Assembly (NCBI GenBank): GCA_963716725.1
Contig: CAVQUB010000014.1
Location: 1 to 64,000 of the forward strand
Length of the DNA stretch: 64,000 bases
From: an uncultured delta proteobacterium
GTDB lineage: Bacteria > Myxococcota_A > Polyangia > Polyangiales > Polyangiaceae
Direction: 5' to 3'
Part shown: positions 3,053-57,751 of the stretch, piece by piece
Position numbering within the stretch: the first letter of the stretch is position 1
How the letters are laid out: the number at the start of each line of letters is the position of its first letter
Position numbers and translations under genes: made by a program
The notes under the pieces: model-generated
Database searches by the model: none
What the model was told of the DNA's origin: nothing
The model's input: the letters and a program-made list of their open reading frames with translations, nothing else

Positions 3053-4850
3053 CTACCGGTACCCGGCCGCTTGCAGCGAGAACAGCCGCGCGTAGATCCC
3101 GTCCAGCGTCATCAGCTGGTCGTGGGTGCCGCGTTCGATGATGTGGCCGCCGGCCAGGACCACGATCTGGTGGGCCATGCGCACGGTCGAGAAGCGATGC
3201 GAGATCAGGACCGCGATCTGACTCTCGGTCATCTCGCGGAAGCGATCGAAGATGCGGATTTCGGCCTCGGCGTCCATCGAAGCGGTGGGCTCGTCGAGCA
3301 CCAGGATGTCCGCGCTCTTGCGCATGAAGGCCCGGGACAGCGCTATCTTCTGCCACTGCCCGACGCTCAGCTCGCGGCCCCGATCGAACCACTTGCCGAG
3401 CTGCGTGGCGTAGCCCTTGGGCAGCTCCTCGATGAAGGGCGCGGCCAGGCCCTTCTGGGCGGCTTCCTTCCAGCGGGCGTCGTCGTCGAAGGCGGTCACG
3501 TCGCCCGTGCCGATGTTCTCGCCCACCACGAACTGGTAGCGCGCGAAATCTTGGAAGATGACGCCGATGCGGCGGTGCAGCGCGCCCGCGTCCCACTCGT
3601 CGAGCGGCAAGCCGTCGAGCAAGACGCGGCCCGAGGTCGGGCGGTAGAGCCGCGTCATCAGCTTGATCAGCGTGGTCTTGCCGGATCCGTTCTCACCGAC
3701 CAACGCCAGCTTCTCGCCCGGCGGGATGTGCAGATCGATACCGGCGAGGGCAGGCTGATCGCTGTCGGGGTACTTGAACGAGACGTTCTCGAAGCGGATG
3801 CCGTCGCCGGGGCGTGGGCCGGCGCTGGCCTTGCCGATCTCCGGCGGCACTTCGTGTTCGAGGAAGTCGTAGAGGTTGGAGAGGTACAGGTTGTCTTCGT
3901 ACATGCCGCCGACCGCAGCGAGCGCGGCCGTCAGGGCGCTCTGTCCCTGCTTGAAGACCAGGAGGTACATGGTCATCTGCCCGAGCGTGATGCGCGATCC
4001 GACGGCAGCGACCGCGATCCAGGCGTAGGCGCCGTAGAACGCGGCGGTGCTGAGCAGCCCCATCACGAAGCCCCAGGCGGTGCGTCGCAGGGTCAGCGCC
4101 TTGTCTTCGAGGTAGAGCTTTTCGTAGATGCTCTTGAAGCGCCCGAGCAGCGTGGGCCCGAGCTCGAAGAGCTGCACTTCCTTCACGTAGTCTTCCCGCG
4201 AGAGCACGGTCTCGAGGTAGTTGCGCTGCCGCGTCTCGGGCGTGCGCCAGCGGAACATGCGGAACGCCTCACCCGAGAAGCGCGCCTCGGCGAAGAGCGC
4301 GGGCAGCGCGGCGGCGACCAGGCCGAGCACCGCCCAACCCGAGAAGGTCCAGAGCAGCAGCGCCGTAGGTCAGGAGCGAGACGCCGTTTTGCATCAGGCC
4401 GAAGGTGCGCAGCACCAGCGACAGCGGGCGGCTCGAGGCCTCTTGTCGGGCCCGCGTCATCTTGTCGTAGAGCTCGGAGTCTTCGAAGTGCTCGAGGCGG
4501 AGCGTGAGCGCCTTCTCGATGATCATCACGTTGACGCGGTTGCTGAGCTGAGCGCGCAGCAGCGACTTGACCGCGTCGAGGGCGCGTTGAAAGGCCGACA
4601 AGAGCGCGACCAAGCCGAGCTCCACCGCGACCCAGCCCAGGGCCACGTTGGGCGTGGCGCTCTCGGGCTGCTGGATGGCGTGCACCACCGCGTCGACGAT
4701 CAGCTTGCCGATGTAGGCGACCGCCGCGGGCAGCAGCCCGGCGCCCAGGCTGAGCAGCGAGAGGGCGACGGTGAGCCTGCGGCTGGTGTCCCAGACCAGG
4801 CGGATCGCGCGCCCGCCATAGCCGTAGACGCCGAGAGTCCGCGCGATCAC
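3053..4850 (-). CDS. ABC transporter, fused permease/ATP-binding (frameshift ~4350)
   Basis: Walker A GENGSGKT, LSVGQWQKIALSRA, LDEPT. The N-terminal TM part lies in the overlapping ORF 4269-5189. Confidence 0.9.
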
Positions 4851-29133: not shown

Positions 29134-29722
29134 CGCGCCGCGCCTGATCGTGGTCAGCGACTTCACGCGTGGTCCCGAGGCCACGCTGCTGGCGCGGATC
29201 GAGCGTTGCTTGTCGAGCGCGATGCCCGGCAGCGTGCTGGTCCAGCTGCGAGAACCCGATCTCGCGACGCGCGCGCGCCTCGCGCTCGGTCGGCGCCTGC
29301 TGGAAATCACTCGACGCCACCAGCAGCGCTTCGCCGTGAACGACCGCCTCGATCTCGCCCGCCTGCTCCAGGCGGACGCCGTGCACCTGGGTGAAGGCAG
29401 CGTCGGGGTCGCGGACGCCCGGCGGCTGATGCCCGACGCGTGGATCAGCTGCGCGTGGCACGCCAAGGCCTCGCCACCGGAGGGGGCCGATGCCCTGGTG
29501 CTCTCTCCGGTCTTCGAGGCGCGACACGGCCGGCCCGCGCTGGGTCTGGACGCGATCGGCAGCGCAGCCGGTGGGCCGCCGATCTACGCGCTCGGCGGCG
29601 TGACACCCGAGCACGCGGCGCGCGCCGTCGAGGCAGGAGCCGCGGGGGTCGCGGTGATCGGCGCGGTGATCGACCAAGACGATCCAGGGCCGCTGCTCGC
29701 TGCACTGGGCATGCTTCGGTGA
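29130..29722 (+). CDS. thiE: Thiamine phosphate synthase family
   Basis: VQLRE, VNDRLD, VHLG, LSPVF, ALGGV. Start uncertain. Confidence 0.85.
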
Positions 29723-29785
29723 GAGGCCGGGGTGGCGCCCACCCTTCACCGAGGCCCGGTCGCGGGGTATACCGCCTGCCGACCC

Positions 29786-32700
29786 ATGGCCGAGACCCCC
29801 TTCGCCCCCGTTCCCACCGAGCTCGACTTTCCGCGCTACGAGCGGCAGATCCTCGAGTCTTTGGCGGTCTCGCCGCATCTTCGAGAAGTCCCTGGAGCTG
29901 CGGGCCGACGACGCACCGCACTTCGTCTTCTACGAGGGACCGCCGACCGCCAACGGGGTGCCGCACAACGGCCACGTGCTGACGCGCGTGATGAAGGATC
30001 TCTTCCCGCGCTACCAGTCGATGCTGGGCAAGCGAGTGCTGCGCAAGGGTGGATGGGACACGCACGGCTTGCCGGTCGAGGTCGAGGTCGAGAAAGAGCT
30101 GCGCATCCACGGCAAGGCCGCCATCGAAGCCTACGGCGTCGAGCCCTTCGTCGCCCGCTGCATCGAGAGCGTATTCCGCTACACCGCCGAGTGGGAGCGC
30201 CTGACCGAACGCATTGGCTTTTGGGTGAGCCTGCCCGACGCCTACGTGACCTTTCACAAGAGCTACGTGGAGAGCGTGTGGTGGGCGCTCTCGAACTTGT
30301 TCGACAAGGGGCTGCTCTACCAGGGCCACAAGGTCGTATGGTGGTGGGCTCAGGGCGGCACCGCCCTGTCGAGCGCGGAGGTCGGCCTCGGGTACAAGAG
30401 CGTGGACGACCCCAGCGTGTTCGTGGCGTTCCCGCTCGTCGACGAGCCGGACACCGCGCTGGTGGTCTGGACCACGACGCCCTGGACCTTGCCGTCGAAC
30501 GGCTACGCGGCGGTGCGACCTGGAGCGAGCTACGACGTGGTGCGAATCGGCGGCCCGCGGCCCCAGCAGGGCAAGGCCCCAAAAGAGCTGAAAACCGCCC
30601 AAAGCCAGCTGATCTTGGCCAGCGATTTGCGGGAGACCGTGGCCAGCAAGATCGGCCACGACCTCGAGGTCGTGAGGACCGTGCGCGGCGAGGAGCTGGT
30701 CGGCAAGCGCTACCTGCCGCCCTTCGACACCTATCATCGGGATCGCGCCGACGCGCGAGTGGCGCTCAAGGACGGCGGCGACGACGCCATGTGGTGGCGG
30801 GTCATCGCCGAAGACTTCGTGACCCTGGACACCGGCGCCGGCATCGTTCACGTCGCGCCGGCCTTCGGTGAAGACGACAACAAGGCGCACCAGAAGCAGC
30901 TCCGGCGTTACGCGAACCCGGACGAGGTGGAGCTGATCTGCGCGGTGCTTCCCGACGGCAGCTTCAAGCCCGAGGCGGGAAAATACGCCGGGCGCTGGGT
31001 CAAGGAGTGCGACAAGGAGATCCTCGCCGAGCTCGGCGAACGCCGCCTGCTGGTGCTTCGAGGAGCTGTACCGCCACGACTACCCCTTCTGCTGGCGCTC
31101 CGACGAGGATCCGCTGATCCAGATGGCGCGGCCCGCGTGGTTCATCCGCACCACGGAGCGCCTGGCCGACGCCATGGCGGACAACCAGGCGGTGAGCTGG
31201 CTGCCCGATCACATCAAAGAGGGGCGCTTCGGCGACTTCTTGCGCAACAACGTGGACTGGGCGCTGTCGCGCGAGCGCTTCTGGGGCACGCCGCTCAACG
31301 TCTGGGTGTGCCAGCGCGATCCGGAGCACAAACACGCGCCCAGCAGCGTGGCCGAGATCGAGCGCCTCGTCACCGACGGCGTTCAAGCACTTCTACGAAG
31401 CCAAGAAGCTCGATCCGACGCTGAACCCCCACCTGATCGTGCACAAACCCTGGATCGACCAGGTGGTGTTCCCGTGCCCCAGCTGCGGGAGCCCAATGCG
31501 TCGCGTGCCCGAGGTCATCGACTGCTGGTTCGACTCCGGCTGCATGCCCTTTGCGCAGTGGGGCTTCCCTCATCAAGAGGGCTCGCTCCAGAAGTTCGAC
31601 GACGCCTTCCCCGCGGACTTCATCTGCGAGGCCATCGATCAGACCCGAGGCTGGTTCTACTCGCTCTTGATGATCTCGGCCTTGGTCTTCGACTCGGCGA
31701 CCCAAGAGAAGGTCGGGCTCTCGACAGCCCCGCGCGCTTTCCTCATCCCTACAAGAGCTGCATCGTGCTCGGGCACGTCTGCGACAAAGAAGGCAAGAAG
31801 GAGAGCAAGAGCCGCGGCAACTACACGCCGCCGGAGATCATCCTGGACCGGGTGCGCATGGAGTTCGGGGTGCTCGCCGAGGCTCACGGCGCCAAGGCCG
31901 TCGAGGGCAAGGTGCTGATCGCGCGCGAGGATCTCGAGGGCATGGACCTGACGGAGGGCGCTCGAGTGGTGCTCTACCGCGCGGACGCGCCGGAGCAGAA
32001 GCGCGAGGTCGTGATCGAGGCGCAGAAGAAGCTGCCCCGGCGGGTGGCGCTGATTTCGGAGGCGGATCGCGCGGCTCTCGCGCTGGAGCCCATCGCCGCC
32101 GGCCTCGAGGCGAGGGTGGTCGAAGTGCCGCGAGCGCCGGTGGCCCAGCGGGTCACCATCGAAGACGAGAGCACGCCGGCACCGGGCGCCGACGCGTTTC
32201 GCTGGTTCTTCTACGCCGCCAGCCCTCCCTGGTCGAACACCCGTCACAGCCTGAGCAACGTGCGTCTCCTGCAGAAGGACTTCCACGTCAAGCTGCGCAA
32301 CGTCTACTCGTTCTTCACCATCTACGCGAACATCGACGGCTGGAGTCCGACCGAGCCCGAGCACGCTGGGCGTCCGGCAGCGGAGCGCTGTCTGCTCGAT
32401 CGCTGGTTGCTCTCCGAGCTCGCCATCACGGTGAGGGACGTGCGCAGCGCCCTCGACGGCTACCTGGCCTATGACGCGGCGCTCAGGCTGATCGATCTGA
32501 CCGAGGCGCTCTCGAACTGGTACGTGCGGCGCAGCCGGCCGCGCTTCTGGGCCAAGGGGCTCGAGGCAGACAAGCGGGACGCCTACGCCACGCTGTATCA
32601 GGCGCTCACGACCCTGGCCGAGCTCGCGGCGCCCTTTATTCCGTTTTTCAGCGAGGAAATTTACCAGAACCTGGTGGTGCGTGCGGGCCTGCCCGGGGCT

Positions 32701-33516
32701 CGCGAGAGCGTGCACTTCGCCGACTACCCGACAGTGGATGCGAGCGTGGTCGACGAGGGGCTCGCAGGCGAGATGGCGGCCGTGCGTCAAGTCGTGAGCC
32801 TGGGGCTGTCCGTGCGTACCGCGAATCGCCTGAAGGTGCGGCAGCCGCTCGCGCGCGCCGACGTGGTGTTCAACGACAAACAAACGCTGGAGCGTCTGGG
32901 CAGTCACCGCTCGCTGATCGCCGAAGAGCTGAACGTGCACGATGTTCAGTTCATGTTTCCCGGCCACGAAGCAGGCGCGGTGAGCTTCAAGCTCAAGCCC
33001 AACTTCCGCACTCTTGGGCCCCGGCTCGGCAAGCGCGTTCAAGAGGTCAAGCAAGCCTTGGACCGGGCGGACGGATCGACGCTGCACGCCGAGCTGTCGA
33101 AGAGCGGCAAGATCGTGCTCGATCTCGCCGGCGAGCAGCTCGAGTTTTCCAGCGACGAGGTCGAGGTGAGCGTGTCTGCTGCCCCGGGTTTTGCCGCGGA
33201 GACGGGCAAGATCGGCGTGGTCGTGCTGCACACCACGCTCACCGAGGCGCTGGTCGAAGAGGGTCTGGTCCGGGATCTGGTCAGCAAGATCCAACAGGCC
33301 CGCAAGGAGATCGGCCTCGAATTCACCGATCGAGTTCGCCTCTGGATCGGCGGCAGCGAGCGGCTGCGGCGCATCGTCGCCGAGAGCTGCGCACACTTGT
33401 CTACCGAGTGCCTCGCCGGGGAGGTCGTCGAGGGCGAGCTCGCGTCGGCGCCGGCCGGGGCGAGGGAGCACCAGATCGGTGACGAGACCGTGGCGGTCCA
33501 CCTGGAAAAGATCTGA
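29786..33516 (+). CDS. ileS: Isoleucine-tRNA ligase, type 2-like (about four frameshifts)
   Basis: [66 protein letters not shown]. Confidence 0.95.
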
Positions 33517-33558: not shown

Positions 33559-34393
33559 ATGGGCAAGCTGGCATCTCGAGTGCTCGCGTTGGCGGTCGCG
33601 TCGGGCTGCTGGTCCTGTGGATCGGACCAAGATCGCCCGAGCAACTTTCACGTTGCGAGCGGCGGCGGGTGGTGGTGGCGGCGGTGGTGGCGGCGGTGGC
33701 TTGGGCGGCGCGCCCTGCACGCCGGTTCCCGGGCAAGGCAGCACCATCGCCGGCAACCTCGTCACCTACGACGTGTACCTGGAGGACGTTCTGGCCTTCG
33801 ATGGGCAGGCGGAGCTCACCATGGCGGGCGCCACCTGCCCGTGGGTCTCGGCGAAGTACGACGCCTCGCAGCTCAACCCCGATGGCGGCCCCCCCAGCTT
33901 CGTGATCGACGGGGCCAAGGGACTGTCACCCTCGTTCGTGCACATCTACCAAGAGCCCACCAGCTCCCAGCCGGTGGTCCCGACCCTGATCGCCGTGGAC
34001 TCGAACTCGGATCAGAACATCCTCGACCGCTTTGGCTTCGTGCGCGCGCAGGGCATCGACGAAGCCTACGCGGCCACGGGCGTGGCGAAGGCTGACGACA
34101 AAGGCACGGTGCTCGTGCAAGTCGTGGAAAAGCCAGGCGTGCCCCTGGCGTCGGCGCAGGTCGACATGGGGACCAACGCCGCGCCGGCCTACCCGGGCGT
34201 CGCCGGTTGGCAGCTCGGGGGTGAGACCGACTCGAGGGGCGTCGCGCTGATGCTCAACGCCGCGGCCAAGCCCTTCCCGGGGCAATCGGCGTCCATCAAC
34301 CTGGCCATCGGGAGCACCAAAGAGTCGTTCAAATGCCCGGTCGAGGCCGGCGCCGTGACCATCTGCTGGATCCGTCCCACCACGGGGTTTTGA
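33559..34393 (+). CDS. Putative lipoprotein (frameshift in the Gly tract ~33665)
   Basis: Signal ...ASGCWSC in one frame; poly-Gly and a beta-rich domain in the next. Confidence 0.65.
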
Positions 34394-36045
34394 TGTTGCG
34401 AACCACCACCGGGCTTGGCGTCGCACTGCTGCTCTCCGCGGGCGTGGCCCGCGCAGCGGATGTGCCGGCCAGTCCCGCCGACTACGCGTCGAAGCTGGCG
34501 GGGCTGAAGCCGGGCGACACCCTGAAGCTCGCGCCGGGCGACTACAAGTCCGGCATGAACCTGTTCAACGTGCACGGAGCAGCGGGCGCGGCCATCGTGA
34601 TCGAGGGGCCCCCGAGCGGCGCGCCCGCGCGCTTCTTGGGCGTGAACGGCAAGAACACCATCGACATTCGCGACGCCAGCTTCGTCACCATCAGGAACTT
34701 GCTGCTCGACGGGCAGAACATCGACGGCGTGGACGCGATCAAGGCCGGGGGGCAGGCCTCGAACTTCGCGCACCACATCACCATCGAGGGCTGCACCATC
34801 ACGGGTCACGATGGCGGACAAACCAACCAGCAGATCGTGGGCATCAGCACCAAGATCGTGGCCTGGGACTGGGTGATCCGGAAGAACGTCTTCGACGGCG
34901 CCGGCACCGGCGCTTATCTGGGCAACTCCGACGGAACGCGGGCCTTCATTGGCGGGCTGATCGAGAACAACCTGTTCAAGAAGACGCTTGGCTACAACAT
35001 GCAGGTGAAGCACCAGCTCCACCGCCAGCAGGCCGACGTGCCCAGCGTGCCCACGGACAAACGCGTCACCATCATCAGGCACAACGTCTTCATCAAGCAG
35101 AACTTGCCGAGCCCCGACGGAGCGCGGCCCAATCTCTTGGCGGACGGCTTTCCGGCGAGCGGTCCGGGCAGCGACGATCACTACGAAATTTACGGCAACT
35201 TTTTTTTCCACAACGACGGCGATGCGCTGTTTCAGGGCAACGGCCGGATCCATTTTCACGACAACCTCCTGGTCGACTCGAAGTTCCCGGCGGTGCGCCT
35301 GGCCGCCCATCAAGGCAAGACCGTGATCGACGCGCTGGTGTACGACAACACCATCTACGACACCGCCAGCGGTATCTCGTTCGGGAGCGCGCCGAGCGGA
35401 CAGAAGCTGGTGGCCGGCAACGCCATCTTTTCACCGCAGCCGCTGTCAGGCGTCACCGGTGCGATCGACAACGTCACTGGCACCGTGGCCGACGCGCTGA
35501 GCCACGTGGTCAGCCCGAGCAAGACCCTGGGACAGATGGACTTCTTCCCGAAGCCCGGCAGCAAGCTGAAGGCCGCGGCCGTCGACCTGTCGAGCGTCAA
35601 GGCTGACGTCGACTTCGATCGCGACTTCAACGGAACGCAGCGCGACTTCACCTACCGCGGCGCCTATCAGGGTGAGGGCACCAACCCCGGGTGGAAACCC
35701 GACGCGACGCTGAAGGGCACGACGGGGAGCGGCGGGACAGGCGGCGGCGGCAGTGGGGGAGCTGGGACGGGCGGCGCAAGCGCGGGCGCCGGCGGCGCGA
35801 GCACGGGCGGCGCGAGCACGGGCGGCGCGAGCACAGGCGGCGCGAGCACGGGCGGCGCGGGCACGGGCGGCGCGAGCACGGGCGGCGCGAGCACAGGCGG
35901 CGCGAGCACGGGCGGCGCGAGCACGGGCGGCGCGGATGACGATGGCGGTTGCGGCTGCAGGACGGCGCCCGTCGGCGGGAGCCTGCCATTCACGGTCGTG
36001 CTGGGCGCGGGGCTCGCGTTGGGCGCGCGCCGGCGCAGGCGCTAG
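34393..36045 (+). CDS. Parallel beta-helix surface protein with MYXO-CTERM
   Basis: Signal peptide, LKPGDTLKLAPGDY, beta-helix repeats, DDGGCGCRTA + TM + RRRR. Confidence 0.88.
   Translation: MLRTTTGLGVALLLSAGVARAADVPASPADYASKLAGLKPGDTLKLAPGDYKSGMNLFNVHGAAGAAIVIEGPPSGAPARFLGVNGKNTIDIRDASFVTIRNLLLDGQNIDGVDAIKAGGQASNFAHHITIEGCTITGHDGGQTNQQIVGISTKIVAWDWVIRKNVFDGAGTGAYLGNSDGTRAFIGGLIENNLFKKTLGYNMQVKHQLHRQQADVPSVPTDKRVTIIRHNVFIKQNLPSPDGARPNLLADGFPASGPGSDDHYEIYGNFFFHNDGDALFQGNGRIHFHDNLLVDSKFPAVRLAAHQGKTVIDALVYDNTIYDTASGISFGSAPSGQKLVAGNAIFSPQPLSGVTGAIDNVTGTVADALSHVVSPSKTLGQMDFFPKPGSKLKAAAVDLSSVKADVDFDRDFNGTQRDFTYRGAYQGEGTNPGWKPDATLKGTTGSGGTGGGGSGGAGTGGASAGAGGASTGGASTGGASTGGASTGGAGTGGASTGGASTGGASTGGASTGGADDDGGCGCRTAPVGGSLPFTVVLGAGLALGARRRRR
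35791..35934 (+). repeat. Coding tandem repeat, 15 bp x9 (GGAST linker)
   Basis: ggcggcgcgagcacg repeated. Confidence 0.9.
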
Positions 36046-36102
36046 TACCGCGCGGCAGAAGTTTCGCTGGTTTCTTTTCCGTGTGCGTGTCGAAACCAAA
36101 CG

Positions 36103-36230
36103 CGCCAACTTCTCGCACGAGGCTCGTTCACGTCAACCGACGACCTTGCGGCGAAGATCGACGCGTACGTCGCGTGGTAGCCGCAGACCGACCCACCCTT
36201 TCGCTGGTCGTACCGCCCCAAGTCGTGGGC
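36103..36230 (+). pseudogene. IS630-family transposase C-terminal remnant
   Basis: Manual translation RQLLARGSFTSTDDLAAKIDAYVAW*PQTDPPFRWSYRPKSW matches the IS630 RGSFxS..L...I..Y...PFxWxY tail. Confidence 0.7.
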
Positions 36231-36301
36231 CGAATCCAGAATAATCCCTCACTTTCTGCGAAGAAAGCCGCAACTGTTTCGGAGTGAGGCCCGACCCCAC
36301 G

Positions 36302-36485
36302 GGGATGGCACAGGAAGGGCGAAAGCTCGGAAGATTTCATCCTGGCGGCGGACTGGGACCGGGCAGAGTGAGCACGGGATGGCACAGGAAGGGCGAAAGC
36401 TCGGAAGATTTCATCCTGGCGGCGGACTGGGACCGGGCAGAGTGAGCACGGGATGGCACAGGAAGGGCGAAAGCTCGGAAGATTT
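36302..36485 (+). repeat. 74 bp tandem repeat (36 bp unit x3, identical 38 bp linker x2)
   Basis: gggatggcacaggaagggcgaaagctcggaagattt at 36302, 36376 and 36450. Confidence 0.95.
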
Positions 36486-36948
36486 GGGGATGGGACGGAC
36501 GAGGTGATCGGTGCGCTGATCGAGGTGCATCGGCATCTCGGTCCAGGGCTGATGGAATCCGCATACGAGGCTTGTCTATCTGCCGAGCTGTCCGAACGAC
36601 GGCTCAAGTTCGAGCGGCAGCGACCGCTACCAATCCGCTGCGGGGGCGTGCACCTTGACAGCGCCTATCGCCTCGACCTGGTCGCTTCCAGATCATATCC
36701 TCCTGGAACTCAAGGCGGTCGAGCGGCTGCTCCCGATTCATGAAGCGCAGGTCATCACCTATCTGCGCCTTTCGCAGTTGCCTGTCGGCCTGCTCGTCAA
36801 CTTCAACGTGACCGCGCTCAGAAATGGCCTGCGGAGGCTCACGCCTGACCACCCCAAATCCTTCCGCTCTTCCGCCCTTCCTGTGAGAGCCCAAATGAGC
36901 GCGGGTCTCAGGGGCGAATCCACTCGAACTTCAGCCGTGCGGCGCTAG
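36453..36948 (+). pseudogene. GxxExxY protein, +1 frameshift at ~36685-36690
   Basis: GPGLMESAYEACL...YRLDLV, then DHILLELKAVE...AQVITYL...LLVNFNV in the +1 frame. Confidence 0.88.
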
Positions 36949-36951
36949 CGC

Positions 36952-37284
36952 TCAGCGCAACGTGACGGCGCGCCCAAGCTTGTCGCCGACCACTCGTTCA
37001 ATGGTCGACCAGAGCTCGTCGTCGGTCTTGTGCGCCACCCAGGCGGAGCGCTCCGGATCCCAGTCGAAGTGCCAGGCGGTGTGGTCGGCGGCCATCCAGA
37101 TTTGTCGCGCGGCGCGGTGCGAGTTCACCACGAAGCGACCACCCGCGCCGAAGTCGAGGGTCAAGATGTCGTTCGACAGCTCGGGATCGAGGCCGTCGAG
37201 GTCGAGTCGATCAAGAGCGTCGATCAGCGCGCGCAGCTCCGGGAGCGCACGCGCTTCGTACTCGGCCTCGGTGAGCGAGCTCAC
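36952..37284 (-). CDS. cyaY: Iron donor protein CyaY (frataxin)
   Basis: LTEAEYE, ILTLDF, VVNSHRAARQIWMAA, WHFDW. Confidence 0.9.
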   Translation of the reverse strand: MSSLTEAEYEARALPELRALIDALDRLDLDGLDPELSNDILTLDFGAGGRFVVNSHRAARQIWMAADHTAWHFDWDPERSAWVAHKTDDELWSTIERVVGDKLGRAVTLR

Positions 37285-37691
37285 TGGGTGGGTGCCGGCG
37301 CAGGTCCGGGAGTCGCCCCGCCCATCGCCGGAACGCAGGCCGGAGAGATGCACTGGTTGCCCGGCGCGCAGTCGTTGTTGGTCTGGCAAGGCCACGCGCA
37401 CTTGCCCGCGGCGGTGTTGCACCGGTGGGTGAGGCAGGCCGAGTCGTTCTGACAGGGGAAAGCCATGGCGCCAGGAGTACTCATCCCGGCCGCCGTGGGC
37501 TGGGGCGCCGGCTGCCCGTAGCCGGGTTGCTGCCCGTAGCCGGGTTGCTGCCCGTAGCCGGGCTGCCCGTAGCCGGGTTGCCCGTAGCCACCCTGTTGGG
37601 GCGGAGGCTCTTCGTCCTTCTTCTTGCAACCAACTATGACGAGCGCCGAAACGACGGTCGATACCACCAGACCAAGCAGGGCTTTCCGCAT
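37281..37691 (-). CDS. Small lipoprotein with QPGYG repeats and a Cys-rich domain
   Basis: RBS aggag, lipobox IVGC-KKK, (Q)QPGYG repeats, 8-Cys module. Confidence 0.85.
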   Translation of the reverse strand: MRKALLGLVVSTVVSALVIVGCKKKDEEPPPQQGGYGQPGYGQPGYGQQPGYGQQPGYGQPAPQPTAAGMSTPGAMAFPCQNDSACLTHRCNTAAGKCAWPCQTNNDCAPGNQCISPACVPAMGGATPGPAPAPTQ

Positions 37692-37828
37692 TGGGATCTC
37701 CTCGGGATTAAGTACTTGGACGACTGAGAGGGGTCAACTCATCAAAGACCCCGCAAGACTCAATAAAATCTCGGAATCGGCGGGGGACGACCCGGCGATC
37801 GGTGCTACCTTCGGGGTTCGAGCGGATG

Positions 37829-39052
37829 GGGAACAGGGGCGCGGGGGAACCGTCGACTGGGGCCGTTGTCGGGGCAGGCAACGGCGCCGAACCGCGAATT
37901 TTGGCGGATTTGCGCGCGGCAATCCGGCGCAAACCGGCCCATGAGGCGCGCCTCGCCGGGGTCCTCCGGGCGCTCTGCCCGTACTCGGCCTCGCTCCGCG
38001 ACGTCATGAGTGACGCCCTGGAAACGCTGGTGAGCCGCCGCTCTTACACCCGGCCACTGTACGCCGCGGCAGCGCGCTCCCTGGCCGCCGCAGGCGACCG
38101 CCGGGTCGGAGACCAGCTGCGGCGGGCCCTCGGCGCCGAGGACGTCGGCGGGCTGCCCACCCTGTGCGCGGCCTGCTTCAGCGCCGACCCCGCGCTCGGT
38201 GAACCCTTGTCCCGCGTCGCTACCAACCGCCATCCGCACCTCGCGCTGGCGGCGGAGGTGGCCCGCGTCGCCCGACGTGAGTCCGATGGAACTCACGTCG
38301 CGTCACTGGCGCCGAAGATCAAGGAGAGCCATCGGATCGAGCTGTGCACGGAGCTCTTCGTTCCGCTGCTCGGGCTGCGGTCGGCGCTCACGGGCGTGGG
38401 CCCCGCGCTCGCGGTGCTGCGGGACGCGGAGCGACACCTGGGTCGTTGGTTGGTGCTGGGGCAAATCGCGACCCGCGCCGGCGATCCCGGTCCGCTGCTC
38501 GAAGCGCACGAACGCGCCACCTCGGGCCCCGCCAGTGCGCGCGCGGCTTGGGCGATGGTGGCCTGGGCACTCGAAGAGGGCCGGCGCGAGCCACCAGACG
38601 TGCGTCCGAATGTCGAGCTTGTCGCGCGTCTCTCGGATCGTCCGAGCTCCGACCGCGACACCACGTTTCTGTATCGCTTGGCGGCAGCGGGCGCGCCGAG
38701 CGCACGGTCGATGCTCGAGAGCGTCGCCAAGAGCAGCGTCTTGTCGAACGACGGCGCGGTGCGCGCGGCGCTCTATCTCGCGCGCGATCACGCCCGAGAC
38801 GATCTCCGCGACGCGCTGGTGGCGGTGGCCGGCAGCGCAAAGCGAGAAGCGCTGCGCGGCCTGGCGACCGCTGCGCTCTGGGATCTCGGCGACCGAGAAC
38901 GCGCCCTGGCGCTGCTGCCGGCCCTTGGGGCGAGCCGCCAGCTCTCGACGCTGGCCTGGGGGGCGCTGCTCAGCTCGGCCCAGGCCGGCAAAATCGACGT
39001 CGTGCTCACGGAGTCGTCGTATCGTCGCGTCCAACTCGGATGGATCGACTGA
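37829..39052 (+). CDS. Hypothetical alpha-helical (HEAT-like) protein
   Basis: About 400 aa Ala/Leu-rich ORF; no catalytic motif recognised. Start uncertain. Confidence 0.7.
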   Translation, partial: GNRGAGEPSTGAVVGAGNGAEPRILADLRAAIRRKPAHEARLAGVLRALCPYSASLRDVMSDALETLVSRRSYTRPLYAAAARSLAAAGDRRVGDQLRRALGAEDVGGLPTLCAACFSADPALGEPLSRVATNRHPHLALAAEVARVARRESDGTHVASLAPKIKESHRIELCTELFVPLLGLRSALTGVGPALAVLRDAERHLGRWLVLGQIATRAGDPGPLLEAHERATSGPASARAAWAMVAWALEEGRREPPDVRPNVELVARLSDRPSSDRDTTFLYRLAAAGAPSARSMLESVAKSSVLSNDGAVRAALYLARDHARDDLRDALVAVAGSAKREALRGLATAALWDLGDRERALALLPALGASRQLSTLAWGALLSSAQAGKIDVVLTESSYRRVQLGWID

Positions 39053-53261: not shown

Positions 53262-53309
53262 CGCCGCCGTCGCGTCCGCCGGCCGCGCGGTGCTATACGC
53301 GTGGCCACC

Positions 53310-55944
53310 ATGGCTTACGACCACCGAGCGGTGGAACCGCGCTGGCAGAAGTACTGGGAAGAGCACGAGACCTTCCGAGTCAAGCGTCGCCCCGGGCGGC
53401 CCAAGGCCTACGTGCTCGACATGTTCCCCTATCCCTCCGGCGCGGGGCTGCACGTGGGGCACCCGGAGGGCTACACCGCGACGGACATCTTCGCGCGCTA
53501 CAAGCGCATGAACGGCTTCGACGTCCTGCACCCCATGGGCTGGGACGCCTTCGGGCTGCCTGCCGAGCAGCACGCCATCAACACCGGGACGCACCCCGCC
53601 ACCACCACCAACGAGAACATCGAGATCTTCCGCCGGCAGCTCAAGTCGCTGGGCTTCTTCTACGACTGGTCCCGCGAGGTGAACACCACCGACCCCGGCT
53701 ACTTCAAGTGGACCCAGTGGATCTTCCTGAAGCTGTTCCACCGCGGACTGGCGTTTCAGGCCGAAAGTCCGGTCAATTGGTGCCCCGCGCTGGGCACCGT
53801 GCTGGCCAACGAAGAGGTCATCGACGGCAAGAGCGAACGCGGTGATTTCCCCGTCGTGCGCCAGCCGCTCCGCCAGTGGCAGCTTCGGATCACCGCCTAC
53901 GCCGATCGCCTCGCCGAGGAGCTCGAGCCCCTCGACTGGCCGGCCACCAAGCAGAAGCAGCGCGAATGGATCGGCAAGAGCGAGGGCGCCGAGGTCGACT
54001 TCCCGCTGGTCGGGCACGCCGGCCACCTGACGGTCTACACGACGCGCCCCGACACGCTCTTCGGCGCGACCTACATGGTGATCGCGCCGGACCATCGGTT
54101 CACGCTCGAGATCACCGCGCCCGATCGCCGGGACGAGGTCGAGAAGTACGTCAAGGCGGCCTCGCGCAAGAGCGACATGGAGCGCACCGCGCTCAACAAA
54201 GAGAAGACCGGCGTGGCCACCGGCGCGCGCGCGCGGAACCCGCTCACTGGCAAAGAAATCCCGATTTTCACCGCAGATTACGTGCTTGGAGCCTACGGCA
54301 CCGGGGCCATCATGGCGGTGCCGGGGCACGACGAACGGGACTTCGAGTTCGCGCAGATGTTCGCGCTGCCCGTCGTCGAGGTGGTGAGCCCCGACGGCGC
54401 GCTGCACGACGCCCTGGGCGCGGCCTACGTCGACGACGGCGTCGCCGTGCGATCGGGGAAGTTCGACGGCCTGCCCACGGCCGAGGCGAAGTCGAGCATC
54501 ACGACCTTCCTCGAAGAGCAGGGCATCGGTCGCCGCAAGGTGAACTACAAGCTGCGGGACTGGGTGTTCTCGCGGCAGCGCTACTGGGGCGAGCCGATCC
54601 CCGTCTACTTTCCGGTAAAAACCCAGGGTGATCCCCGCCAAGGCGCGGCCTACGAGATCGACTACTCGACGCCCATCGCCGTGGACGAAGCCGAGCTGCC
54701 GCTCCTGCTGCCGGAGCTCGAAGACTACAAGCCCGGCGATCCCGCGGGTCCGCTGGCGAAGGCCCTGGACTGGCGTTTCTTCCAGAAGGACGGCAGCTGG
54801 TTCGCCCGCGAGACCAACACCATGCCCCAGTGGGCGGGATCGTGTTGGTACTACCTGCGCTTCCTGGATCCGCACAACGACAGCGAGATTTTCAGCCAGC
54901 AGGCCTACGACGACTGGATGCCCGTGGACCTGTACATGGGCGGCTCCGAGCACGCGGTGCTCCACCTGCTCTACGCTCGTTTCTGGCACAAAGTGCTGTT
55001 CGACGTCGGCGTGGTGAAGCACCCCGAGCCCTTCAGTAAGCTGGTCCACCAAGGCATGATCTTGGGCGAACCCCAGATGACCGCGTATCGCGGCGCGAAC
55101 GCCGCCTTCGTCTCCGCCGATCTGGCTCGCACCGACGACGACGACCGGGTGGTGCACCGGGAGACCGGTGAGGCCCTCGAGGTCGCGCGGGTCGACGAGA
55201 GCGCGGTCGAGAAACGGGGCGGCCACTTCGTGCTCAAGGACAGCCCCGAGGTGAAGGTCCAGTCCATCGCCTTCAAGATGAGCAAGAGCCGCGGCAACGT
55301 GGTGAACCCCGACGACGTCGTGCAGGACGCCGGCGCCGACAGCCTCCGGGTCTACGAGATGTTCATGGGTCCCCTCGAGCAGGTGAAGCCCTGGCAGACC
55401 GCGGGCATCCAGGGCGTCCGCCGCTTCCTCGATCGGGTGCACACCCTGTCGACTCGGGAGCTGTCTGGCGAGATGAGCGCCGAGACCGCGAAGCTGGTCC
55501 ACCGGACCGTGAAGAAGGTGGGGGAGGACATCGAAGGGCTGCGCTTCAACACCGCCATCAGCGCCATGATGATCCTTGCCAACCACTTGAACGGTCTCCA
55601 GCCAACGCCGCGAGAAGCCTTGGAAAAATTGACGCTCTGCCTGTCGACCTTTGCGCCGCATCTGGGCGAAGAGATTCTGGGAGCGACTGGGCCACCCGCC
55701 GACGGTTCTGGACGTGCCCTGGCCCACCCACGACCCGGCCCTGTGCGTGGACGACCAGGTCGAGGTCGTGGTGCAGGTCAACGGAAAGGTGAGGGGTCGC
55801 GCGGTGTTGGCGCAGGACGCCAGCGAGGACGCCGCTCGGGCTGCGGCCCTCGAGGACGAGAACGTCAGCCGGCACGTGGCGGACAAGCAAATCCGGAAGG
55901 TGGTCTACGTCCCGGGGCGCGTGCTGAACCTGATCGTGGGCTGA
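53310..55944 (+). CDS. leuS: Leucine-tRNA ligase (frameshift ~55680)
   Basis: [23 protein letters not shown]-terminal VQVNGK...[11 protein letters not shown]. Confidence 0.97.
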
Positions 55945-56005
55945 ACGCGCGCTGCTGAACGCGCGTATTCCCAACTGAACACAAGCACTTGTGTTGAAAA
56001 CTTGA

Positions 56006-56021
56006 TGTTTCCCGTGAAACG
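56006..56021. promoter_or_regulatory. parS-like site
   Basis: TGTTTCCCGTGAAACG, 14/16 match to TGTTTCACGTGAAACA. Confidence 0.65.
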
Positions 56022-56022
56022 T

Positions 56023-56544
56023 GTGGCGGGTAGCTCCGCGACTTTGCTCGGCCTTGTCCTGGCCCTGCTGGGCCCCGGAGCTTGTGGGTATCGACCGGTC
56101 CACGGCGGCGAGCAGCCCTCCCGCCTGTCGTTGGTGGCTGCGCCGGCCCTGGCGCCGGACGCCGAAGCGACGGGGGCGGCGCTGTCGGGGGCCCGGGCCG
56201 AGCTCGGGCGGGAAGGGGTGTTGGGGTCACCCACCGGGTACCCCCGGCTGGTGATCGAGCTGGTTCGGGTGGACGCCGAGGCGGCCGCCATCTCTGCGAG
56301 GGGCGACCAGCCCCTGGGGCGGGGCACGCGGATCACCGTCGTCGTCCGGGGCTGGGTCGAGGACTCGGCGGGGGCGTCGCCTTCGCGAGTCACCGGTGAC
56401 CTCAGGCGGGCCGTGGTGACCGCGGAGGGGGCAGGCGGCGCTGAGGCGGCCGCGTCGCGCCGGGATGCGGCCAGGCGGGCAGGGGAGGCTGCTGGACGGG
56501 CCGTCGCCCGGCACGTGTTGGGGATCCCGACCGCCCGGGACTGA
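56023..56544 (+). CDS. LptE-like lipoprotein
   Basis: Lipobox GAC-GYRP; position directly after leuS. Confidence 0.6.
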   Translation: MAGSSATLLGLVLALLGPGACGYRPVHGGEQPSRLSLVAAPALAPDAEATGAALSGARAELGREGVLGSPTGYPRLVIELVRVDAEAAAISARGDQPLGRGTRITVVVRGWVEDSAGASPSRVTGDLRRAVVTAEGAGGAEAAASRRDAARRAGEAAGRAVARHVLGIPTARD

Positions 56545-56548
56545 TCCG

Positions 56549-57103
56549 GTCGTGGGCCGAATCCAGAAAAATCCCCTCACTTTCTGCGAAGAAAGCCGCA
56601 ACTGTTTCGGAGTGAGGCCCGACCCCACGGGGATGGCACAGGAAGGGCGAAAGCTCGGAAGATTTGGGGATGGGACGGACGAGGTGATCGGTGCGCTGAT
56701 CGAGGTGCATCGGCATCTCGGTCCAGGGCTGATGGAATCCGCATACGAGGCATGTCTATCTGCCGAGCTGTCCGAACGACGGCTCAAGTTCGAGCGGCAG
56801 CGACCGCTACCAATCCGCTGCGGGGGCGTGCACCTTGACAGCGCCTATCGCCTCGACCTGGTCGCTTCCAGATCATATCCTCCTGGAGCTCAAGGCGGTC
56901 GAGCGGCTGCTCCCGATTCACGAAGCGCAGGTCATCACCGATCTGCGCCTTTCGCAGTTGCCTGTCGGCCTGCTCGTCAACTTCAACGTGACCGCGCTCA
57001 GAAATGGCCTGCGGAGGCTCACGCCTGACCACCCCAAATCCTTTCGCTCTTCCGCCCTTCCTGTGAGAGCCCAAATGAGCGCGGGTTCAGCCGCGCGGCA
57101 CTA
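56549..57103 (+). mobile_element. Left-truncated copy 2 of the IS630-like/GxxExxY element
   Basis: Near-identical to 36222-36906 without the 74 bp expansions. Right end ttcagccgcgcggcac-TA is a 14/16 inverted match to the left TIR of copy 1. Confidence 0.8.
56633..57086 (+). pseudogene. GxxExxY protein with the same +1 frameshift as the 36 kb copy plus a Y-to-D change
   Basis: ORFs 56465-57028 and 56835-57167 carry the two halves; AQVITDL instead of AQVITYL. Confidence 0.88.
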
Positions 57104-57751
57104 CGGCCGCATCGCCTTCTTGAAGCGCTTGGCGTCCGCGAACATGTCCACGTTCGTGAACACGTAGGTCGCCTCTTGGTCGAGGTCGGCGCTGGCGATT
57201 TCAGCGAGCTTCTCGATGGCGGGATCTTCGTAGCGGGACTTGTGGCCAGCGGGTCCCGGGAGGCGGTAGTAGGCCACTGAACGTTTGGATAGACCGTGCG
57301 TCAGCGGATCGCGCGCGGCGAGGCTCCTGGTCTCTTCCGCGAGCGCGTCAGCGTCGTCGGGATCCCAGGCGGAGCCTGGCTCGAACACGATTCGGTTGAA
57401 CTGTTCGCGGACCGACTTGAGGAAGTCTTTCAGCGCGCTGCGGTTGGCGCGGGAGGCGGTGAAGTCGGACGGGGCGACGAAGATCGCCGTGGAGGCGTCC
57501 AGCTCGGCCGCCACATCGCTCAGCTGCTTGAGGGCAGTCTCGATCACTTTTCCCTCGCGAAACCCCTCCTGGCCCACCTGGCGCGGCCCGAGCAGCGCAA
57601 ACTCGAAACCTTCCGGAGCCTCGCGGCGCCAACGACGCAAAGTGCCCGGGCCGGGGACCGCGAGGTGGGTCTCCTGCACTTCGACGAAGAGGTACTCTTT
57701 GAAGTACCTAGTCGCAGGGACAGCGAATCCCGCGCATCCGACCGTCAACAT
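57101..57751 (-). CDS. DUF72 family protein
   Basis: VGCAGF, VEVQET, RRWRREAPEGFEF, FEP, YYRLPG, YVFTN. Confidence 0.75.
   Translation of the reverse strand: MLTVGCAGFAVPATRYFKEYLFVEVQETHLAVPGPGTLRRWRREAPEGFEFALLGPRQVGQEGFREGKVIETALKQLSDVAAELDASTAIFVAPSDFTASRANRSALKDFLKSVREQFNRIVFEPGSAWDPDDADALAEETRSLAARDPLTHGLSKRSVAYYRLPGPAGHKSRYEDPAIEKLAEIASADLDQEATYVFTNVDMFADAKRFKKAMRP

Follow-up and report, generated by a model that had tools for sequence, protein, structure and literature searches.

The 64-kb stretch analysed here (the window; contig CAVQUB010000014.1, from a member of the Polyangiaceae) carries, between two convergent host genes, an interval in which IS-type (insertion sequence) DNA and a GxxExxY pseudogene are found. 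The gene to the left, on the plus strand, is a 570-aa open reading frame (ORF; 34333-36045) ending in a C-terminal MYXO-CTERM domain (TIGR03901, 25 bits, cutoff 20), and the gene to the right, on the minus strand, is cyaY (36952-37629; TIGR03421, 67 bits). An earlier reading of the same DNA from its letters only (the sequence-only reading) had described the interval as one IS630-like shell with a GxxExxY gene as its cargo. Our analysis confirmed an IS630-derived, TA-bounded, non-autonomous element that contains a GxxExxY gene, on the basis of the transposase tail, the two TAs and the profile matches. The interval is probably a three-layer nest of decayed mobile DNA, in which a deletion derivative of an IS630 element holds an IS10-like cassette, which in turn carries a GxxExxY pseudogene as passenger.

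An IS630 remnant split by a second element

The left TA of the IS630 target duplication (36043-36044) is formed by the first two bases of the TAG stop codon of the MYXO-CTERM gene (36043-36045). As the TA is duplicated at a C-TA-G site, the host stop is preserved, in agreement with the earlier description. The TA is followed by the left terminal inverted repeat, GTACCGCGCGGCAGAAGTT (36045-36063, + strand), with a weaker match continuing to 36074, while the right terminal inverted repeat (36927-36945, +) is followed by the right TA (36946-36947). The TA-bounded repeats at 36043-36063 and 36927-36947 are present as had been described, with an inverted match at 15 of 19 positions, and an inverted-repeat search extended the pair to 36 nt at 75%. 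No other TA-bounded 15/19 inverted pair occurs in the 64-kb window. The empty site as reconstructed, GCGC-TA-GCGC, is palindromic and contains CTAG, the TA being present at both ends of the element.

Inside the repeats, the remains of a transposase gene are found in two parts. The first (36103-36237, +) consists of 45 codons, RQLLARGSF...PKSWAES, and includes the in-frame TAG (36178-36180) noticed earlier, which stands where relatives keep a conserved Tyr. Pfam and NCBIfam gave no match for the 66-aa tail. When it was compared with longer proteins, with X at the in-frame stop, 35 matches were obtained (E to 2.7e-19, 52-86% identity), and PF13358 is present in 34 of these proteins. A lack of IS630 similarity in this tail had been put forward as a reason to abandon the shell, and the similarity was found. 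NF033545 (IS630 family transposase, cutoff 100) matches P0013 and P0014 (301 aa) at 178 bits, and the tail aligns with residues 249-293 of P0014 at 37/45 identities (E 3e-24, BLASTP). A tblastn search of plasmids with the tail gave weak matches only (E ~1e-3), located on annotated IS630 transposases. Everything upstream of the equivalent of P0014 residue 249 is deleted in this copy (copy 1), and what remains is the non-catalytic C-terminal 45 + 11 codons, the catalytic part having been lost.

The second part (36913-36948, +), GESTRTSAVRR followed by a TAG stop, is in frame with the first. Relatives of the tail end in ...RPKSWAESSATSAGRY or ...RPKSWDESRQTSAARH, and TSA lies within the last six residues in 10 of the 35. 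GESTRTSAVRR has 6/11 residues in common with two such C-ends, AESSATSAGRY and DESRQTSAARH, and stops at the same position. The 17-aa right tail was too short a query to give a BLASTP alignment, and stops were counted directly instead; of the 1702 found when all six window frames are taken together, only 2 reach 6/11 identity to these C-ends. The right-hand TAG of the ORF is the right TA plus G, so that the right repeat carries both the ORF end and the TA and is fixed independently of the left repeat.

The tail leaves the IS630 family after ...RPKSWAES and the same frame resumes exactly 684 bases later, the ORF being split between ...PKSWAES and TRTSAVRR plus stop, 11 codons before its stop. 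The 684 inserted bases, a multiple of three, are made up of a 675-nt insert with IS10-like ends, CAGAATAATCCC...GGGTCTCAG (36237-36911, +), and a 9-nt direct repeat, with the left copy GGCCGAATC at 36228-36236 and the right copy GGGCGAATC, 8/9 identical to it, at 36912-36920. Because the frame resumes after exactly this length and with this repeat, the segment with the GxxExxY gene is a secondary insertion into the IS630 transposase gene. The gene is therefore not the cargo of one IS630 shell, as had been proposed, and belongs to a separate, non-autonomous element with its own 9-bp duplication. A duplication of 12 nt (GGGCCGAATCCA) was also considered and was dropped for 9 nt, the element ends being defined from the related loci described below.

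Within the insert lies a further inverted repeat. Its 44-nt left arm (36450-36493, +) holds the ATG (36453) and the first codons of the GxxExxY gene, and its right arm (36849-36892, +) is 77% complementary to the left one. The insert also contains a 74-nt tandem repeat (36302-36485, +; 2.5 copies, 100% identical), whose unit consists of the left inner arm and 38 nt of filler for which no match was found elsewhere.

The presence of a GxxExxY gene in the interval was confirmed, as both halves of it (36453-36837, +) match PF13366 (PDDEXK_3) and TIGR04256. It is, however, a pseudogene. Profile positions 3-67 (69.7 bits) and 68-114 (54.5 bits) of TIGR04256 are found in different frames, and the intact ORF of a related Polyangiaceae locus, L071, scores 149.8 bits on the same profile. 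Compared with that ORF, both copies in the window have one additional nucleotide near 36689-36691, which falls between the catalytic D and the ExK motif. With the gene frameshifted, the movable GxxExxY cassette that had been envisaged would not have been a working one here.

A shortened second copy of the composite (copy 2; 56549-57103, +) was found from the recurrence of the inner-arm pattern at 56637. It begins with 15 nt of the IS630 tail, including the same left duplication (56549-56563), followed by the inner element with the same frameshift and without the tandem repeat (56564-57090), the IS630 right tip CCGCGCGGCAC (57091-57101) and a TA (57102-57103). Before the tip there is an apparent 23-nt deletion between two TCAG. 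The two copies have the same left junction and show 8 differences in 543 columns. Copy 2 is located between a 180-aa ORF (56002-56544) and a DUF72 gene (57101-57751, -), and its right TA is again part of a TAG stop, CTA at 57101-57103 being the stop of the DUF72 gene on the minus strand. The sequence-only reading had not mentioned this copy, 20 kb away, nor the frameshift, the 44-nt inverted repeat, the 74-nt tandem repeat and the 9-bp duplication.

The same junction was found outside the window. In P0004 and P0026, two of the 35 related proteins, which are metagenomic and come from other contigs, the IS630 tail reads straight into the inner element, and the C-end of P0004 is exactly the translation of copy 2. 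From the junction in copy 2, P0004 and P0026 we infer that the insertion struck an IS630 with more of its transposase and that the composite spread afterwards. The idea of an IS630 carrying a GxxExxY cassette is therefore right in that the composite has been copied, while the GxxExxY gene itself belongs to the inner transposon.

The inner element family and its GxxExxY passenger

A pattern scan of genome contigs with the core of the inner arm gave at least 95 loci, which do not include the genome of the window itself; most belong to Polyangiaceae-type metagenome-assembled genomes (MAGs) and to Labilithrix luteola. Among the matches listed, identity to the window reached 78-80% at best. Convergent arm pairs, 43 in 42 loci, have a spacing of 56-790 nt, and GxxExxY-like coding remnants were found in 32 of the 95 loci listed. 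Both halves of the gene were detected in 12 loci and, by coordinates, abut in one frame only in L071. This was confirmed by eye for L071, and the other 11 were judged by coordinates. At least seven of the 95 loci (L001, L003, L036, L048, L064, L069 and L074) are (GGAAGGGC)n simple repeats and were set aside as not being elements.

The outermost ends in the loci read C(T/C)(G/A)(G/A)GAAATCCCCT... and ...AGGGGATTTCCCAG. Both outer ends could be located in six elements, and each of the six lies between direct repeats of 9 bp (8-9/9 identity; 0-5/9 in offset controls). In the IS10 of plasmid R100 the outside end is CTGATGAATCCCCTAATGATTT and the inside end CTGAGAGATCCCCTCATAATTT, and all 12 ends of the six complete elements agree with the inside end at 13-16 of 17 terminal bases, a level (at least 13/17) that only 8 in 300000 17-mers drawn at random from the loci attain. 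For the IS10 subgroup, CT ends with a duplication of 9 bp are listed in Table 1 of 'IS4 family goes genomic' (PMC2266710). Elements of this type also occur, with their own duplications, in loci without any IS630 sequence, and no IS630 tail adjoins an inner element in the 95 loci (best E 0.028, L051). Their sizes range from 169 bp (L010, hairpin only) to ~530 bp with an ORF, and the internally deleted ones keep the first and last parts of the GxxExxY ORF. Such a size series with internal deletions is the usual picture of decay seen in miniature inverted-repeat transposable elements (MITEs).

Judged by these ends and duplications, the inner element is best classed among the mobile insertion cassettes in the sense of MIC231, a name found among the references of PMC2266710; it is IS10-like, non-autonomous and carries a passenger. 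The ends CTGRGAAATCCCCT are those that would bound its cognate IS10-subgroup transposase. No autonomous copy (outer-end pairs 1-3 kb apart with a duplication) was found in the 95 loci, and no target duplication was recognisable in a 115-120-bp subfamily of MAG JBGANF01. In Labilithrix luteola (L043, L051 and L012, at ~3850-4090), 156-bp hairpin units with the same arm core lie inside a further inverted repeat, CAATGCCGTTCGGATA...TCCGAACGGCATTG, which is another nested vehicle; in L043 this outer repeat is flanked by the 9-bp repeat GCCTAGAGC/GCGTAGAGC.

The passenger belongs to a very large family, with 21687 clusters at 50% identity (E<=1e-3); it was not found in the phage collection. D77, E87 and K89, which correspond to the D...ExK of PD-(D/E)XK, vary little or not at all across 63 GxxExxY sequences. 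The AlphaFold (AF2) model of the L071 protein has a predicted local distance difference test (pLDDT) score of 90.2, and its best fold neighbours in the PDB are lambda exonuclease, Cas4 and Hjc, with E only ~1e-2; phmmer against the PDB gave no solved relative. The 2012 survey of PD-(D/E)XK proteins lists GxxExxY as being of unknown function (PMC3424549), and no activity of any GxxExxY protein was found in the literature searched. Tandem-duplicated or fused forms make up about 20 of the best 150 representatives (P0040-P0051 and others), which measure 220-295 aa and are matched over two stretches.

On this basis a possible order of events can be proposed. An IS630-family element would have inserted at C-TA-G between the stops of two convergent genes, the MYXO-CTERM gene and cyaY, duplicating TA. 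A small non-autonomous IS10-like (IS4-family) element could then have entered the transposase gene, still longer at the time, with a 9-bp duplication. Having no transposase and only GxxExxY, it presumably depended for its movement on a cut-and-paste transposase of the IS10 type, encoded elsewhere and acting in trans. The innermost layer would be the GxxExxY ORF, tightly bracketed by its own inverted repeat of ~40 nt. Later events may have been the +1 frameshift in GxxExxY, common to both window copies, and the copying of the composite to the second site at 56.5 kb. In copy 1, ~250 transposase codons would have been lost, leaving a MITE-like shell of ~217 bp plus insert; this copy would also have acquired the stop in place of Tyr and the tandem duplication of 74 nt. 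As both IS630 ends are present, copy 1 could still be movable by an IS630 transposase supplied in trans.

Hairpin brackets and alternative explanations

The tight bracketing of the gene by an inverted repeat is not confined to the window. Eight GxxExxY genes from a plasmid collection were examined for bracket repeats, which together with L071 makes nine genes outside the window. Repeats of 25-30 nt (86-92%) bracket the genes of Sphingomonas (L096, 1189-1625), Bacteroides finegoldii (L098, 1122-1593) and Bernardetia (L099, 1145-1595), and a repeat of 16 nt (88%) brackets that of Treponema (L101, 961-1421). The Gemmatirosa gene has an empty perfect hairpin beside it, and no bracket repeat was found at the Prevotella, Fusobacteria and Persicobacter genes. 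On a uniform bracket score L071, L098, L096 and L099 reach 16-25 against a control maximum of 14 (400 positions), L101 reaches 11 and the four others are at background. The arms have a style in common, (T)TCAC followed by purine-rich units of 8-9 nt. The annotated genes are co-directional with both neighbours in 6/6 cases, and bracketed genes lie between housekeeping genes such as fabD/fabG, radA/FAD protein and ade/mannose-1-P guanylyltransferase.

Arms were also found without the gene. The Bacteroides arms recur alone in 13 Bacteroides records and, at 92-94% identity, in 2 records of Gemmatirosa, which belongs to a different phylum. Intergenic ORF-less hairpins with the arm TTCACCACAGAGGACGCAGAGGAC... 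are located at 700-895 (L105), 700-775 (L106), 645-740 (L107) and 705-880 (L108), and two Bacteroides ORF-less hairpins hold terminator-like stems in their loop. A short hairpin of the Polyangia type was found in a Verrucomicrobiae MAG. No target duplication was recognisable where the arms border on the flanking DNA in the cassettes of Sphingomonas, Bacteroides and Bernardetia. Rfam, searched with 35000-38000 and nine related loci, gave nothing or sub-threshold miRNA-precursor look-alikes, and in the literature searched, a limited collection, no paper with these arm sequences or describing a GxxExxY cassette was found. As a wider system, hairpin-bracketed GxxExxY remains a lead.

Several observations weigh against the three-layer nest and should be considered before the alternatives. 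A TA-bounded 15/19 pair is expected by chance at a mean of 0.125 per window, with at least one in 4 of 40 Markov-1 simulations; at about one in ten windows, the pair alone is only suggestive. The further copies of the terminal repeats that the sequence-only reading had looked to amount to one right tip, that of copy 2; a search of the window and the 95 loci that allowed 4 mismatches gave nothing else, and the left repeat has no further copy there. Copy 2 is without a left IS630 end. Neither the window (41 ORFs) nor the 95 loci yielded a full-length IS630 or an IS10-type transposase (R100 IS10 transposase as tblastn query), and the inner-element ends in the window are worn when compared with IS10 (9 and 12 of 17 in copy 1, 13 and 7 in copy 2). 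Finally, ileS elsewhere in the window is spread over at least three frames, so that local assembly errors are a possible source of some frameshifts. Against such an error in GxxExxY, the frameshift is identical in both copies, which differ at 8 other positions.

The chance rate, together with the uniqueness of the left repeat, could suggest that the IS630 tail is a stranded fragment and the left repeat a chance match, with no complete shell and nothing that could be mobilised, and the palindrome CCGCGCGG within the repeat does inflate inverted matches. We nevertheless regard this as unlikely. What makes the 15/19 pair convincing is that the last codons and the stop of the IS630 ORF lie in the right repeat, which is thus fixed without reference to the left one; moreover, the left repeat lies directly after a TA, where closing the site gives the CTAG-containing palindrome. 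The right tip of copy 2, in reverse complement, shares 12 of the first 13 bases with the left repeat of copy 1, which supports the reality of the left repeat, and GTRCCGCGCGGC... is the left-end sequence predicted for full-length copies of this IS630. The original proposal, in which a single IS630-derived element captured GxxExxY between its ends without a second transposon, has in its favour that tail and gene both lie inside the TA-bounded repeats and that the window holds at least two copies of the composite, which is also present on two other contigs. It is scarcely credible, however, since the segment breaks a transposase frame that resumes after exactly 684 bases, has its own 9-bp duplication and IS10-like ends, and has counterparts of the same type, with duplications of their own, in loci without IS630. 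If the inverted repeats were instead an RNA element of the host (a terminator, for instance, or a stem for processing, set between convergent genes), this would agree with the strong predicted stems (z -4.56 in copy 2, -7.24 in L010), with the position of both window copies between convergent genes and with the terminator-like stems in the two Bacteroides hairpins. The target duplications, the IS10-like ends and the insertion inside a transposase gene indicate mobile DNA instead and no Rfam family matched, which makes this explanation very improbable; a terminator role of the stems is possible as a side effect.

A further explanation, speculative at present and in our view rather doubtful, takes the hairpin-bracketed GxxExxY unit itself as the selfish agent, with a protein that would target the arms flanking its own gene, much as in homing or in REPIN/RAYT systems, and with the IS10-like and IS630 layers as mere vehicles. 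GxxExxY genes might then be the coding cores of pan-bacterial selfish cassettes, a tentative proposal in which the protein would recognise or cut the TTCAC + purine-rich arms. The ORF-less hairpins of Bacteroides, Polyangia, Gemmatimonadota and Verrucomicrobia would be non-autonomous derivatives or targets, and the system might be a nuclease-based counterpart of REPIN/RAYT or a homing system with dispersed repeats as homology arms. The brackets of the same style in Sphingomonas, Bacteroides finegoldii, Bernardetia and the intact L071, which all score above the control maximum, are in favour of it, as are the dispersed ORF-less hairpins in Bacteroides and Polyangia-type genomes, the similarity of Bacteroides and Gemmatirosa arms and the lack of visible target duplications at the arm borders of three cassettes. 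On the other hand, bracket scores do not exceed background at 4 of the 9 genes outside the window (Prevotella, Fusobacteria, Persicobacter and Gemmatirosa), and the literature searched held no GxxExxY activity. In addition, the short hairpins of the window family keep the first 8-17 nt of the ORF, so that they look like deletion products of a classical terminal-inverted-repeat element with 9-bp duplications. For the window family, classical transposition and decay therefore suffice, and the three-layer nest is the reading that we retain there.

The window has a G+C content of 68.8% and is chromosomal DNA, with genes including ileS, leuS, folD, lgt, lspA, thiG and cheW/cheR, and no transposase was found among the 41 ORFs scanned in it. 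The ileS gene (29670-33516) matches the tRNA-synt_1 profile at positions 4-185, 185-263 and 292-357 in different frames, followed by the anticodon domain; this split is either a pseudogene or a local patch of assembly errors. Unlike ileS, leuS (53262-55958) is intact. Coding tandem repeats were seen on both sides of the nested elements. At 35780-35934 a 15-nt unit (10.3 copies) encodes a GGAST-rich linker ahead of the MYXO-CTERM anchor, and at 37511-37581 an 18-nt unit (~4 copies) encodes GYGQQP repeats in an ORF (37281-37691, -) upstream of cyaY.

For the window itself the value of the result is one of annotation only, as what remains is presumably inert transposon debris between two intact host genes. 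The gain is the identification of two IS remnants, one pseudogene and a stop codon that survives as the IS630 target TA within TAG. Two points reach beyond the window. GxxExxY, a very large family without a function, travels here as passenger of an IS10-like cassette with MITE-like offspring, and conserved hairpin arms, which are dispersed without the gene as well, bracket it in several phyla. If the nuclease acts on its own arms, the many paralogues of the family could be explained, which makes this a testable lead.

Comparison with known systems

The outer element resembles members of the IS630 family (related to Tc1/mariner) and their MITE-like derivatives. Its tail shares homology with members of NF033545, the TA of a CTAG-type site is duplicated, there are terminal inverted repeats with the stop codon in the right end, and internal deletion has left the ends and a short interior. 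It differs in that only 56 codons with an in-frame stop and no catalytic domain remain, in being interrupted by another element, and in its left end, of which no second copy was found in the window or loci.

The inner element is similar to IS10 (from Tn10, IS4 family), as the copies in the loci have 13-16 of the 17 terminal bases of the inside end, 5'-CT ends and a 9-bp duplication. With 170-680 bp it is much shorter than IS10 (1.3 kb), it has no transposase gene, and its hosts are high-GC bacteria of the Polyangia type. In organisation it resembles MIC231 (IS231/IS4 family, Bacillus cereus) and MITEs, in which IS-type ends likewise enclose a passenger without a transposase, with target duplications, and in which shorter ORF-less derivatives occur in many copies. 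Unlike MIC231, its ends resemble IS10 and not IS231, and its passenger is a GxxExxY PD-(D/E)XK gene with its own inverted repeat. Its mobilisation in trans is presumed; searches of the window and the 95 loci gave no cognate DDE transposase with the YREK motif.

A small gene flanked by inverted repeat copies, which are also dispersed as intergenic ORF-less hairpins, is known from REP/REPIN sequences and their RAYT proteins. In contrast to RAYT, the GxxExxY protein has a PD-(D/E)XK fold and is not an HUH Y1 transposase, and the window family makes 9-bp duplications. A functional link between protein and arms would be hypothetical, and the likeness between the two systems is one of architecture only.

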